DNA of 64,000 bases from Corallococcus caeni (GTDB taxonomy: Bacteria > Myxococcota > Myxococcia > Myxococcales > Myxococcaceae): assembly GCF_036245885.1 (NCBI RefSeq), contig NZ_BTTX01000008.1; one strand, 5' to 3'. The translations under genes and the position numbers were made by a program. Positions within the stretch are counted from its first letter, which is position 1. The number at the start of each line of letters is the position of its first letter. Below, piece by piece: positions 39,766 to 43,982 of the stretch. The notes under the pieces were generated by a model. The model saw nothing but the letters and a program-made list of their open reading frames with translations, ran no database searches and had not been told where the DNA came from.

Positions 39766-40173
39766 CTATTCCGGCCGTGGCCGCCGGTAAGTGGCGAGAA
39801 TGACAGGGACCGCCACCCCTGTCACCAGAAGTGCCTGCGCCAGCAGCACCGCCGGCAGCGGGCGCTGCACGTGCACGTACAGCGAGCGGCCAAGCCCCAC
39901 TCCCAGGAGGACGCCCGTCAGCGTGCGCAGCGCGTTGGAACCGGACGCGGGCCGGAAGCGTCCCACCGCCCAGTCCACCAGCGCGGGCAGCGTGAGGGCC
40001 AGCACCACCGGCACGTCCCACTCCCACCGGAGCGGCGCCTTCAGCGCGAACAACCCCAGGAACACGGCGGCGAGCACCGGGTACGTCCCCAGGCACCGCG
40101 CGCACACGCGCACGCCCGCGAGCACGTACGTGCGGTTGTACTCATCCGCGTGATGATGGCTGAGCCAGAACAC
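39766..40173 (-). CDS. DUF2085-like small membrane protein with a CxxC motif
   Basis: Four predicted TM helices and VCARCLG. The proposed start is GTG at 40171-40173, overlapping the oppF-like gene by 32 nt. Start assignment is low confidence. Confidence 0.45.
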
Positions 40174-41197
40174 CGCCGCCTCCTCCGGACACGGAAACAG
40201 CGGTCCCGTCCTGCACTTCCCGCGAGTCCCCTTCCGCCAGGAAGCACGCCGCGGCGTGGCCTCCGCCCAGCGGATACAGCGGCGGCGACTCGCGCCGGCA
40301 GCGCTCCATCGCATGGGGGCAGCGCGGGTGGAACGCGCAGCCGGTCGGCGGCGACAGCGGCGAGGGCGGCTCTCCCGGCAGGAGCAGTCGCGCGCGGGGG
40401 CGCTCCGGATCCGGCACCGGCACCGCGGACAGCAGGGCCTGCGTGTACGGGTGGCGAGGCCCGGCGTACAGCGCCCGCGACGGCGCGACCTCCACGATGC
40501 GGCCCAGGTACATCACCGCCACGCGCGTGGACACGTACTCCACGATCTTGAGGTCGTGCGCGATGAAGACGTAGGTGAGCCCGCGCTCGCGCTGCAGGTC
40601 CACCAGCAGGTTGACGATCTGCGCCTGGATGGAGACGTCCAGCGCGCTGATGGGCTCGTCCGCCACCACCAGGTCCGGACGCAACGCGATGGCACGTGCA
40701 ATGCCGATGCGCTGACGCTGGCCGCCGGAGAACTCGTGCGGGTAGCGCTGCCGCGCCTCGCGGGGCAGCCCCATGGCGTCGAGCAGCGCCAGCACCTCGT
40801 CCTCGCGCGCCCTGCCCTTCGCGAGGCCATGGATGGCGAAGGGCTCCGCGAGGATGTCCCCCACCGTCATGCGCGGGTTGAGCGACGCGTACGGGTCCTG
40901 GAAGACGAGCTGCATCTGCCGGCGCAGCGGCCGCAGCTCGCGCTGCGACAGGCCGGTCAGCTCGCGCCCGGCCACGCGGATGGAGCCGGAGGTCGGTTCG
41001 AGGAGGCGCAGCACCGCGCGCCCCAGGGTGCTCTTGCCGCAGCCGCTCTCCCCCACCAGGCCCAGCGTCTCGCCCCGGGCGACGTCGAAGGACACGCCGT
41101 CCACCGCGCGCACCGTGCCGCGCGTGCGCCCCAGCAGGCCGCCCTTCACCGGGAAGTGCACCTTCAGGTCGCGCACCTGGACCAGGGGTTCGCTCAT
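40142..41197 (-). CDS. Oligopeptide/dipeptide-type ABC transporter ATP-binding protein (OppF/DppF-like); no permease or binding protein in the window
   Basis: Walker [10 protein letters not shown], signature FSGGQRQR, Walker [14 protein letters not shown]-terminal oligopeptide-ABC extension with HPYT. It carries an unusual Gly-rich tail. ATG at 41195-41197. Confidence 0.8.
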
Positions 41198-42231
41198 GGC
41201 GCGGGCACCGGATGGTGGCAGGCGGCGGACTGGCCTCCGCGCTTGGGCTCCAGCACGGGCGTGACGCGGGCGCACAGCTCGGTGGCGCGGTCACAGCGGT
41301 CGCGGAAGGCGCACCCGGACGGCAGCGCGCCCAGCGAAGGCACCATGCCGGGGATGGCCTTCAAGCGCTGGCGTCCGCCCTCCACCGCCGCGCCCGCGTC
41401 GTGCAGCGACGGGATGGAGCGCAGCAGGCCCGCCGTGTACGGGTGCGCGGGCCGGGCGAACAGCTCGCGCACCGGGGCCTGCTCCACGATGCGGCCCGCG
41501 TACATCACCACCACCGCGTCACAGCTTCCGGCCACCACGCCAAGGTCGTGCGTGATCAGCATCACCGCCATGTGGCGCTCGGCCTGGAGGCGCTTGAGCA
41601 GCTCGAGGATCTGCGCCTGGATGGTGACGTCCAGCGCGGTGGTGGGCTCGTCCGCGATGAGCAGCGCCGGGTCGCACGCGAGCGCCATGGCGATCATCAC
41701 GCGCTGGCGCATGCCGCCGGAGAGCTGGTGCGGGTACGCGTCCACGCGCTCGCCGGGCGCCGGGATGCCCACCTGCCGGAGCATCTCCACCGCGCGATCA
41801 CGCGCCTGCGCGCGCGTCGCGCCCAGGTGCAGCCGGACGCCTTCGCCAATCTGCTCGCCCACGGTGAACACCGGGTTGAGCGACGTCATGGGCTCCTGGA
41901 AGACCATGGCCACGTGCCGGCCGCGCACGCGGCGCATCTCCTTCTCCGGCAGGGCCAGCAGGTCCTCGCCCCGGAAGCGCACCTCGCCGCCCACCACGCG
42001 GCCGGGCGGATGGGGGACGAGCCGCATCACCGACAGCGCCGTGAGGCTCTTGCCGCAGCCGCTCTCCCCCACCACCCCCAGCGTGCCGCCGGGAGGGACG
42101 GTGAAGGACACGCCGTCCACCGCGTGCACCGTGCCGCGCGGGAGCGACAGCTGGGTGACGAGCCCCCGCACGTCCAGCAGCGGGGCCGGGGCGTCGACCC
42201 GGGCCCCGGGGGACGGCGCGACGCCGGTCAC
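41194..42231 (-). CDS. Oligopeptide/dipeptide-type ABC transporter ATP-binding protein (OppD/DppD-like)
   Basis: Walker [11 protein letters not shown], signature LSGGMRQR, Walker [17 protein letters not shown] motif. Translationally coupled on both sides. Confidence 0.8.
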
Positions 42232-43220
42232 TTCTGGGCCAACTCCTCCAGGAACTCCGCCTCCTGGATGAGCCCCTTGCGGATGAGCAGGCGGATGAGG
42301 CTCGCGACCATGCGCGCGGGCTTCACCTTCTCCGTGTCCAGGCTGGCCTCCTCGCCGCGCGAGATGCGGTCGATGTCGTCCAGCACCGCCAGGTCCTCCT
42401 CGGAGAAGTCCGGCGTGGGCGTGAGCGCCATGGACGGCTTCGCGCCCTGCGCGGCGCCGCCGAAGAGCACCACCGGCACGCGCGGCTTGCTCGGGTCCTC
42501 GGGCTCGGAGGGCGGAGGGGGCGGCGGCCGGGCCGCGGCGGGCGGCGGCGGGGGACGCGGGGCCTTGGGGCGGGGCTTGGAGCCCAGGATGTCTTCCAGC
42601 ACCTCCGCGCCGTCGACGCCCGACTCGTGCGGCGGCGGTGGAGGCAGGTCCCAGTCCAGCGCCGGCGGCGCGGGCGGGCGCGGCGGCGCCGGGGGCCGCG
42701 CGGAGGCGGAAGGCGGCGACGGCAGGATGTCCGGCGAATCGTCCTCGTCCATGTCCATCGGTTCAGCCTCCACGATGTCCAGGGGCTCGCCCCGGCCGCG
42801 CGCGAGCGCCTGCTCCATGTCATCCGACGCGGCGACGAATACCTTGAGCTGCTTGCGCAGCTGGAAGCGCAGCTCGTCCACCAGCATCAGGTTGCCCGGG
42901 TCCTCCACCGCGACGTGGATCTTCTCGCTGCGGCCGTCCTGCTCCGAAGCGAAGAGGAGCACCCGGTGCTCGCTCTGGAAGTCCATGGACACCAGCGAGG
43001 ACACCCCGTGCGGGATGTACTCGGGGATCTCCACGAAGGGCAGCTCGTGCTGCGCCGCCAGCGCCCGCGCGATGTCCCGGCCCGTGCACAGGCCCATGGA
43101 CACCAGCACCTCGCCCAGCTTGCGGCCCTGGCCGCGCCTTCCGGAAGCCAGGGCCTGCTTCACCTGCTCGTCCGTCACCACTCCGGCCTGGACGAGGAGT
43201 TCACCAATCTTCTTGCGCAT
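42228..43220 (-). CDS. Standalone MshEN / GspE-N-terminal (T2SSE_N) domain protein with a Pro-rich C-terminal half
   Basis: Two 24-residue MshEN c-di-GMP-binding motifs: [24 protein letters not shown] and [24 protein letters not shown]. No ATPase domain. Confidence 0.7.
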
Positions 43221-43229
43221 GGCCGGGGG

Positions 43230-43982
43230 CTACCGCTTGACCTTGGCGAGGTATTCCTCGCGGGAGAAAACACCCTTCTCGATGAGCAGCTCCACCATGG
43301 CCTTCAGCGCCGCGACCTCCTTGCGCTGGACCTCCTCCACGCTCTTGAGCAGCTCCGCGGGGCTGCCGGAGGCGGCCTGACGGGGGGCCTCCGCGGGGGG
43401 CGGTGGCCGGGGCGGAGCGGCGGCGGCGGGCTTGGGGGACATGGCGACGGCGGCGGCCGGGTCCAGGTCCTTGAGGTTCTTCACGACGGTGCGGCCCTGC
43501 GCGTCCACCACCTTGAAGTTGGTGTCCGCGTCCTCCAGCTCCGCCGTCTCCTCGTAGAGGCGCGCGAACGCCCGCGCCACGGAGGTGCGCCCCGCCACGT
43601 TGGCCACGATGCGGCACTTGGACAGGGCCCGCAGCTCGTCCAGCACCCGCACGTTGAGCGGGTCCGACATGGCGACCACGAGCGTCTTGCCGTCGTCGCG
43701 CAGCTGCAGCGGCACCACGGAGAAGTCGCGCGCGGTCTGCGCCGGGATCTTGGACTTCACGTGCGGCGGCACCATCTGCACGGCGTCCAGGTTCACCGCC
43801 GGCATGCCGAGCTGCTTCGACAGGGCGCGCACGAGGATGTCCTCGGAGACGAGGTTCATCCGGACGAGGATCTCGCCCAGCTTTCCGCCCCATTTGGCCT
43901 GCTCGGCGAGCGCCGCCTTGAGCTGGCTCTCCTGCAGGACGTTCGCCTTGATCAGCAGTTCTCCGAGCTTGATCTGTGCCAT
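43230..43982 (-). CDS. Standalone MshEN / GspE-N-terminal (T2SSE_N) domain protein
   Basis: Motifs KLGELLIKANVLQESQLKAALAEQ and KLGEILVRMNLVSEDILVRALSKQ. Second T2SSE_N lobe LVVAMSDPLNVRVLDELRAL. Pro-rich C-terminus. No ATPase domain. Confidence 0.7.
   Translation of the reverse strand: MAQIKLGELLIKANVLQESQLKAALAEQAKWGGKLGEILVRMNLVSEDILVRALSKQLGMPAVNLDAVQMVPPHVKSKIPAQTARDFSVVPLQLRDDGKTLVVAMSDPLNVRVLDELRALSKCRIVANVAGRTSVARAFARLYEETAELEDADTNFKVVDAQGRTVVKNLKDLDPAAAVAMSPKPAAAAPPRPPPPAEAPRQAASGSPAELLKSVEEVQRKEVAALKAMVELLIEKGVFSREEYLAKVKR

Follow-up and report, generated by a model that had tools for sequence, protein, structure and literature searches.

Cyclic diguanosine monophosphate (c-di-GMP) acts through MshEN domains on secretion ATPases and on a glycosyltransferase. 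What, then, do two free-standing MshEN proteins control when they are encoded directly ahead of a pair of OppD/OppF-type ATP-binding cassette (ABC) ATPases? This question is raised by an operon on contig NZ_BTTX01000008.1 of Corallococcus caeni, which we analysed in a stretch of 64 kb (~71% G+C; "the window" below). We conclude from comparative sequence analysis that the two ATPases descend from a complete importer into which an MshEN gene was inserted and that MshEN and OppDF were both retained under purifying selection, and we tentatively favour a functional partnership between them.

The MshEN proteins and the OppD/OppF ATPases

The operon is read from the minus strand and comprises the following features, for which Myxococcus xanthus orthologues are given by MXAN number (AF2, alignment-based AlphaFold prediction).

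43995..44000, minus strand: tentative -10-like box (TACTAT), 12 nt 5' of the MshEN-1 ATG, read in the sequence
43230..43982, minus strand: MshEN-1, 250 aa, orthologue of MXAN_4667 (PF05157, NF053729, AF2, Foldseek)
42228..43220, minus strand: MshEN-2, 330 aa, orthologue of MXAN_4666 (PF05157, NF053729, AF2, Foldseek)
41194..42231, minus strand: OppD-type ABC nucleotide-binding protein, 345 aa, GTG start, orthologue of MXAN_4665 (ABC_tran and oligo_HPY)
40142..41197, minus strand: OppF-type ABC nucleotide-binding protein, 351 aa, orthologue of MXAN_4664 (ABC_tran and oligo_HPY)
39766..40173, minus strand: DUF2085 small membrane protein, 135 aa, orthologue of MXAN_4663 (PF09858, E 2.3e-10)

The shared part of the operon region is 100% identical to Logan assembly DRR510904 and 99.1% identical to Corallococcus assembly GCA_036245865.1, and the nearest named homologues of MshEN-1 are from Corallococcus. 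An earlier note, made from the letters of this DNA alone, had read the two small open reading frames (ORFs) as MshEN proteins without an ATPase domain, and profile searches bear this out: both match PF05157 (MshEN-1, 56.9 bits, E 2.2e-15; MshEN-2, 43.1 bits, E 4.2e-11; cut-off 23.1) and the NCBIfam model NF053729 'c-di-GMP_motif' (64.8 and 56.2 bits, respectively; cut-off 38), and the Pfam/NCBIfam search returned no match to the T2SSE ATPase domain (PF00437) in either. The PilB and GspE equivalog models are matched at their N-terminal 85-150 positions only, far under cut-off, and the NfrB and EpsG models are also matched by both proteins over the MshEN part. Judged from these matches, the proteins are not secretion ATPases.

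AF2 models of both proteins have pLDDT >90 over residues 1-147, where they show the MshEN fold with its four-helix N subdomain and alpha/beta C subdomain, and the best PDB matches found by Foldseek are PilF GSPII-A/B and V. cholerae MshE with c-di-GMP (5htl; target-normalised TM 0.83 and 0.75, E 2e-9 and 4.7e-9 for the two proteins), with PilB and XpsE among the further structural matches. In the models the MshEN domain of MshEN-1 (1-147) is followed by a disordered linker (148-207) and a C-terminal helix-turn-helix (208-249), and that of MshEN-2 (1-147) by a disordered tether (~150-270; 29% proline), a short helix (274-287) and a C-terminal helix-turn-helix (301-328), which suggests one architecture common to both and to a myxobacterial family: MshEN domain, disordered tether and C-terminal helix-turn-helix hairpin. 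Orthologues of MshEN-2 range in length from 292 to about 1835 aa solely through the tether; the longest (L080:10748-16261, ~1837 aa) carries three tandem copies of the C-terminal hairpin, and an 854-aa orthologue (L068:10768-13332) contains an (AEREK/ERLEREAAEQ) repeat block. To our reading, the C-terminal module resembles positions 4-21 of the MshEN motif minus the RLG start. A search of 1.84 billion representatives found this module only at the extreme C-terminus of proteins, and as 9/10 long matches that we scanned have an N-terminal MshEN domain, we rejected the idea of a general docking motif shared across families.

Is the c-di-GMP site intact? Each 24-residue motif of MshEN-1 has six contact residues ([RK]-L-G, L17, L21 and Q24; roles taken from PMC5013675), and these and the 5-residue spacer between the motifs are invariant in 75 distinct orthologues, so that the protein is expected to bind c-di-GMP; the one exception is the turn glycine (position 10), whose place is mostly taken by Asn, as it is in both motifs here. 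MshEN-2 has an intact motif 2 and a motif 1 with I at position 2, V at position 17 and G27 in place of the final Q, which is present in 33/57 orthologues; its spacer has 6 residues (6-8 among orthologues). Its first c-di-GMP half-site thus reads as degenerate, and c-di-GMP binding by MshEN-2 is uncertain. The paired strict motifs that had been claimed for both proteins are therefore found in MshEN-1 with its 5-residue spacer, but not in MshEN-2, owing to G27 and the 6-residue spacer.

Both ATPases carry the ABC_tran and oligo_HPY domains proposed for them and match the M. tuberculosis OppD halves, E. coli DppD/F and E. coli OppD/F with E values from 1e-94 to 1e-140 (OppD: 2.8e-121 to M. tuberculosis OppD, 8j5q, and 5.6e-98 to E. 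coli DppD, 8z1v; OppF: 2.6e-140 to 8j5q and 1.2e-102 to DppF, 8z1v_D). OppF scores 417.7 bits with the NF008453 subfamily model (cut-off 408), and OppD stays under all equivalog cut-offs. Walker A, Q-loop, signature (LSGGM in OppD, read in the sequence), Walker B, H-loop and the four-Cys oligo_HPY C-terminal domain are kept in both, which are canonical importer subunits with intact catalytic motifs. A permease or substrate-binding partner is lacking from the window, as had been noted before: tblastn with two divergent sets of substrate-binding protein (SBP) and permease queries detected no SBP_bac_5 or BPD_transp_1 gene in the 64 kb, nor did Pfam matches, which covered nearly all called ORFs, the call at 4826-5926 having been left out of the scan. 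As encoded in the window, the system falls outside the definition of a peptide/nickel/opine importer (TC 3.A.1.5), having neither permeases nor binding protein.

The reported 4-nt overlaps into the two ATPase genes are confirmed as GTGA (MshEN-2 stop, OppD start) and ATGA (OppD stop, OppF start), and with a 32-nt overlap between the OppF end and the DUF2085 start, overlapping start and stop codons run from MshEN-2 through OppD and OppF into DUF2085. MshEN-1 and MshEN-2 do not overlap, 9 nt separating the stop from the ATG. A scan of the operon strand between 37000 and 45200 found no terminator-like sites. TACTAT may tentatively be taken as the operon promoter, which would give a near-leaderless mRNA; the site was not called by a consensus promoter scan. 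In M. xanthus, a strong vegetative transcription start was mapped 5 nt upstream of MXAN_4667, MXAN_4666 is marked as an internal operon gene, MXAN_4665, 4664 and 4663 are listed next without transcription starts, and MXAN_4662 has a separate start 66 nt upstream (PMC8844925 Table S2).

Ancestry of the operon

To trace the origin of this arrangement we used a one-genome-per-species scan that yielded 80 loci, all of them belonging to Myxococcaceae sensu lato. OppD and OppF come right after the MshEN gene(s) in 61/62 loci with at least 4.5 kb of downstream sequence. Where at least 4.5 kb of upstream sequence was available (68 loci), an SBP_bac_5 lipoprotein and two BPD_transp_1 permeases are encoded directly 5' of MshEN-1 and on the same strand in 19, all deeper-branching, and none of the 49 crown-type loci has permeases or binding protein. 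In Vulgatibacter, which belongs to another family, the order is DUF4292-like, SBP, permease, permease, one MshEN, OppD, OppF, with no DUF2085, extracytoplasmic function (ECF) sigma or Kil genes near the locus, and on JGI contig L091 it is DUF4292, DUF6184, SBP, two permeases, two MshEN, OppD, OppF, DUF2085, ECF sigma, anti-sigma and a Tad-like gene. These loci therefore show MshEN embedded between the permease and ATPase genes. A metagenome-assembled genome (MAG) that serves as outgroup (L087) has the same importer operon without MshEN.

Around this core, the order DUF4292 > MshEN1 > MshEN2 > OppD > OppF > DUF2085 > ECF sigma is conserved almost everywhere in the scan. The window has it on the minus strand (DUF4292 > MshEN-1 > MshEN-2 > OppD > OppF > DUF2085 > ECF sigma > zf-HC2 anti-sigma), the flanking genes being:

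44042..44899, minus strand: DUF4292/LolB-like lipoprotein (PF14125, E 8e-15), directly 5' of MshEN-1 and on the same strand
39054..39701, minus strand: ECF sigma factor, 215 aa, orthologue of MXAN_4662 (Sigma70_r2 and r4; NF009166, 269.7 bits, cut-off 206)
37639..39057, minus strand: zf-HC2 anti-sigma factor, ~472 aa, orthologue of MXAN_4661 (PF13490, E 2.1e-05)

The DUF4292 gene precedes the importer binding-protein gene in the relatives, as seen in L055, L063, L091, Vulgatibacter and the outgroup L087. The DUF2085 gene, whose product we read as having about four hydrophobic helices, comes after OppF in Myxococcaceae loci, whether these have permeases or not; Vulgatibacter lacks it.

In a neighbour-joining tree of OppD and OppF rooted with Vulgatibacter, which carries no support values, the permease-bearing loci are paraphyletic and their state ancestral, and the permease-less loci form three groups: the crown clade, which includes all cultured genera, L061, and L079/L080. 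The tree thus shows at least three losses of the binding protein and permeases, through each of which MshEN and OppDF stayed. The closest homologues of the lost permease, followed down to ~46% identity, include Vulgatibacter and no named Myxococcus, Corallococcus, Archangium or Cystobacter protein, and the crown genera are thus apparently without cognate permeases. Across the named crown genera the retained proteins are 72-86% (MshEN-1; 85-86% to MXAN_4667), 77-84% (OppD/F) and 84-89% (ECF sigma) identical. What the importer carried is not specified by family models, as the binding protein and permeases of the relatives stay under every NCBIfam equivalog cut-off (nickel, Opp, Dpp, opine, Sap and Yej). 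The ATPases, previously described as orphans, are so at this locus; they are not strays, being the retained half of an ancestral importer operon.

The comparative series, from a plain importer through insertion of MshEN, then duplication of MshEN and addition of DUF2085 and ECF sigma, to loss of the SBP and permeases, offers a rare view of the step-by-step dismantling of a transporter operon in which the ATPase and sensor parts were kept. A mirror image of the window was seen in a Myxococcales MAG (L086, 8361-11991), which encodes a related SBP-permease-permease trio and, within 10 kb of it, no ATPase. In L061, L101, L103 and L104, OppD comes directly after a lone MshEN gene; three of these loci also have OppF, DUF2085 and ECF sigma downstream, whereas L103 breaks off inside OppD. 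The second MshEN has thus either been lost in these loci or can be dispensed with.

Candidate partners of the MshEN proteins

Our preferred reading, to which we give somewhat less than even confidence, is that the MshEN proteins are cytoplasmic, c-di-GMP-responsive partners of the OppD/OppF ATPase. We infer that MshEN-1, and perhaps MshEN-2, would bind c-di-GMP and dock on the OppD/OppF dimer, plausibly via the C-terminal hairpin or the MshEN_C subdomain, and that docked MshEN would make ATP turnover by OppD/OppF c-di-GMP-dependent. Ancestrally this would have served the gating of import, in an operon of the TC 3.A.1.5 type with the order DUF4292-SBP-permease-permease-MshEN-OppD-OppF, from which the binding protein and permeases were deleted in the lineage to Corallococcus, Myxococcus and Archangium. 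Here OppD/OppF would act without cognate permeases, either energising other peptide-family permeases or feeding a non-transport output. The model is supported by the position of the MshEN genes in the operon, their translational coupling, their retention together with OppDF through at least three permease losses, and the apparently intact sensor. Of the MshEN-ABC ATPase complex of novel function that the earlier note had envisaged, a functional link is thus favoured over chance adjacency by the retained importer half, and the novel function is not demonstrated.

Several observations weigh against this partnership. Three Anaeromyxobacteraceae loci keep a syntenic single MshEN, with tether and hairpin, and have no Opp gene nearby. 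A lineage from soil metagenomes (L111-L161, e.g. L129:4813-8597; MshEN-1 42-51% identical) is without OppD/F and DUF2085 in the 16 loci with enough sequence 3' of the second MshEN, and reads DUF4292, MshEN1, MshEN2, a 305-aa protein, ECF sigma, anti-sigma, KilB, KilG, KilH. The 305-aa protein is HD-GYP-like: it contains the motifs THDIGM and GFGYP and matches HD_5 weakly (26 bits vs a cut-off of 27.2). As this lineage keeps the MshEN pair without OppDF, the pair is not strictly dependent on OppDF, and taken together with the Anaeromyxobacteraceae it makes the MshEN gene(s) the invariant of the locus, while the Opp parts come and go. Moreover, the protein that is coupled to OppD, MshEN-2, is the one with a degenerate first half-site in the window, and the precomputed Pfam architectures of ~230 homologues include fusions to glycosyltransferase and HAD only, none of MshEN to an ABC protein. 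Between permease-bearing and permease-less clades we detected no relaxed or re-fixed sites in the Q-loop or helical subdomain of OppD/F, and this null result neither supports nor excludes a new partner; an unchanged Q-loop and helical subdomain would fit continued docking on some permease, in which case the ATPases are ordinary. Lastly, full-text searches of the searchable literature found MXAN_4664-4667 mentioned in the main text of no paper.

An automated census of the 16 soil-lineage loci had seemed to show loss of the MshEN-2 hairpin tracking the absence of OppDF, which proved to be an artefact of the pattern and of the window searched, as a diverged copy of the hairpin (LLAVLIRILNRNQLIEPGDLREEI) is present ~35 residues from the end and is followed by an extra tail.

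The alternative that fares best, which takes up the earlier note's idea of trans-acting sensors for the Tad-like machine and which we regard as rather doubtful, has the MshEN pair feed c-di-GMP signals into the module formed by ECF sigma, anti-sigma and Kil. The pair would act either through the anti-sigma factor or on the Kil platform or ATPase itself, which has no MshEN domain, and OppDF would be bystanders left over from the importer. The start of the anti-sigma gene overlaps the sigma stop (ATGA), and 3' of the anti-sigma gene lie a 97-aa Flp-like ORF, KilB, KilG, KilH and two FHA proteins that belong to the Tad-like Kil cluster II:

34450..37620, minus strand: Kil cluster II core (two T2SSF domains and RcpC; table of Seef et al.)
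37327-37620, minus strand: 97-aa ORF with a Flp-like G/QAMVEY prepilin motif
36276-37094, minus strand: KilB/CpaB
35354-36199, minus strand: KilG
34450-35340, minus strand: KilH

A sigma-70-like promoter was called at 37214-37185 (minus strand) by the promoter scan. The cluster is compact here, in that the anti-sigma gene and the 97-aa ORF are followed directly by kilB, kilG and kilH, and the window lacks counterparts of MXAN_4654-4660 (KilK, KilL, KilN, KilM and unknowns) at this place.

Conserved linkage speaks for such an input. Nearly all two-MshEN loci with enough downstream sequence have an ECF sigma gene 3' of the pair (L173 is the exception), the anti-sigma and Kil cluster II genes come after it in many loci, including Corallococcus, deep Myxococcaceae clades and the soil lineage, and that lineage keeps the series MshEN1-MshEN2-HD-GYP-ECF sigma-Kil without OppDF. 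Two of the single-MshEN loci (L101 and L104) also run into ECF sigma, L101 continuing with an anti-sigma-like ORF and an ORF that we read as TadE-like. MshEN natively belongs to type IV filament ATPases, in line with the structural matches to PilF, MshE, PilB and XpsE. A precedent for c-di-GMP control of an anti-sigma factor exists in Streptomyces RsiG-WhiG. KilF itself has an FHA domain rather than MshEN (table of Seef et al., PMC8460266).

The linkage to kil genes, seen in many Myxococcaceae-type loci (Corallococcus, M. xanthus and several deep clades) and the soil lineage, is however not universal: Vulgatibacter has MshEN-OppDF without ECF or Kil genes nearby and Anaeromyxobacteraceae have MshEN alone. 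Profile searches found no Tad-family homology for the MshEN proteins, OppD/F or DUF2085. Since MXAN_4662 has its own transcription start, the sigma/Kil and MshEN-OppDF modules may be separate units that lie side by side. Expression data also count against such an input, as MXAN_4667 falls slightly, from 1262 to ~680, and MXAN_4666 from 654 to ~465 normalised reads in starvation (PMC8844925), whereas the kil clusters are induced by starvation, and the authors who described them end Kil cluster II at MXAN_4661 and do not implicate MXAN_4662-4667 (Seef et al. 2021, PMC8460266).

Less probable, in our estimate, is the absence of any functional coupling, with OppD/OppF serving peptide-family permeases encoded elsewhere and the MshEN proteins being independent receptors in a conserved block. 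Conserved adjacency alone is indeed weak evidence here, because a block of PPIase, DAP dehydrogenase, two MaoC, acyl-CoA dehydrogenase, ExbBD and DUF4292 genes is syntenic across three families. A split arrangement exists (the SBP-permease-permease trio of L086 without nearby ATPase), OppD/F are unchanged at the surfaces expected to face a permease, and MshEN outlasts every loss of Opp genes. Yet an exact insertion between permease and ATPase genes and overlapping codons across ~60 loci are not expected of an unrelated gene, OppDF stayed with MshEN in every permease-less locus through at least three losses, and the named crown genera yielded no close orthologue of the cognate permease.

An extension of the partnership we rate as improbable: the permease-less OppD/OppF would have become a non-transporting, c-di-GMP-gated switch, to which MshEN is tethered by its hairpins and which is anchored by DUF2085, steering the anti-sigma/ECF sigma pair and hence Kil. 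If this were true, an importer would have been turned into a second-messenger signalling device for predation.

Regulation of the ExbB/ExbD proton-driven motor or of the DUF4292 lipoprotein is very improbable: these are the only neighbours common to all three families, flanking MshEN in most Myxococcaceae loci, Vulgatibacter and Anaeromyxobacteraceae (in the last, MshEN comes right after ExbB-ExbD on the same strand, with a gap of ~50-80 nt), but ExbBD is divergently transcribed in Myxococcaceae and Vulgatibacter, where 4-5 kb of Opp genes can intervene, L079 and L080 have MshEN-OppDF with neither ExbBD nor DUF4292 nearby, and DUF4292 resembles a housekeeping LolB-type protein. In the window, the DUF4292 protein scores 44.2 bits with the Flavobacterial LolB1 insertase model (LolB1_Flavo), just under the cut-off of 50, and no more than 15 bp separate its start from that of the divergent exbB.

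Neighbourhood and known systems

The REC-HD-GYP gene, taken in the earlier note as a sign of c-di-GMP turnover capacity nearby, is real:

50637..51758, plus strand: REC-HD-GYP protein, orthologue of MXAN_4675 (Response_reg, HD_5 and HD; HDIGK and GKGYP motifs)

MXAN_4675 is itself catalogued as HD-GYP. An orthologue of the hybrid kinase SgmT (MXAN_4640) is encoded at 19108-21702 on the minus strand, with GAF, HisKA, HATPase and REC domains and a weak GGDEF match, which brings the c-di-GMP-related genes of the 64 kb to four, the MshEN pair and the REC-HD-GYP gene included. Elsewhere in the window, a Wzt-type ABC ATPase (3479-4825, minus strand; ABC_tran and Wzt_C) adjoins a large family-2 glycosyltransferase (605-3436); the two make up a polysaccharide export system that has no relation to OppD/OppF. 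On the minus strand, 40 nt separate two tRNA genes whose Rfam scores are identical (5764-5835 and 5876-5947), and because they fall inside its span the high-GC3 ORF call at 4826-5926 is probably spurious. A 1397-aa SNF2-family helicase ORF (56063-60256, plus strand) failed the GC3/GC2 codon-composition filter that caught nearly all other genes, and may be of foreign origin.

How does the operon compare with what has been described? The MXAN_4667-4662 genes of M. xanthus are direct orthologues with the same gene order and overlaps as in the window. MXAN_4667/4666 and the ATPases have been catalogued (lists and RNA-seq/transcription start tables of PMC8844925), with no function, binding or ABC link reported. 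Free-standing MshEN proteins are nothing unusual among myxobacteria. M. xanthus has 17 MshEN genes, MXAN_4667/4666 among them, by one count (Kuzmich et al. 2022, PMC8844925) and up to 22 by another (Wang et al. 2016, PMC5013675). Mutant data for MXAN_4662-4667 were not found in the searchable literature, full-text searches of which for MshEN with ABC transporters or oligopeptides, or with predation, returned nothing relevant, and MXAN_4664-4667 are absent from one predation/development transcriptome supplement. The genes themselves are thus known; the MshEN-in-Opp operon, its stepwise reduction, the tethered-hairpin architecture and the alternative HD-GYP version are what we did not find described. 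As the locus adjoins the Kil prey-killing machine in a tractable model (MXAN_4662-4667), a possible c-di-GMP input into predation is directly testable.

V. cholerae MshE (5htl) and T. thermophilus PilF GSPII share with the window proteins the fold and, in full with MshEN-1 and in part with MshEN-2, the tandem 24-residue motifs, but their domains are N-terminal parts of hexameric secretion ATPases, whereas MshEN is free-standing here, carries a tether and hairpin, and is encoded beside ABC-type ATPases. The E. coli NfrB glycosyltransferase and the EpsG-type tyrosine kinases use MshEN as a portable c-di-GMP input for unrelated enzymes; these are covalent MshEN fusions, in contrast to the putative target in the window, a separate, translationally coupled ABC ATPase pair. 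M. tuberculosis OppABCD (8j5q) and E. coli DppBCDF/OppBCDF (8z1v, 8z21) are close homologues of OppD/OppF, from which the window differs in having no binding protein or permeases and in the MshEN genes inserted in the operon. Cytoplasmic signals are known to gate import via nucleotide-binding subunits, as c-di-AMP binds the CBS domain of OpuCA and EIIA-Glc inhibits MalK. The control that we propose for OppDF by MshEN would follow an analogous logic, with another messenger, another sensor fold and, here, a separate tethered sensor, and a trans-acting MshEN tied to ABC-transporter ATPases would add a new class of c-di-GMP target.

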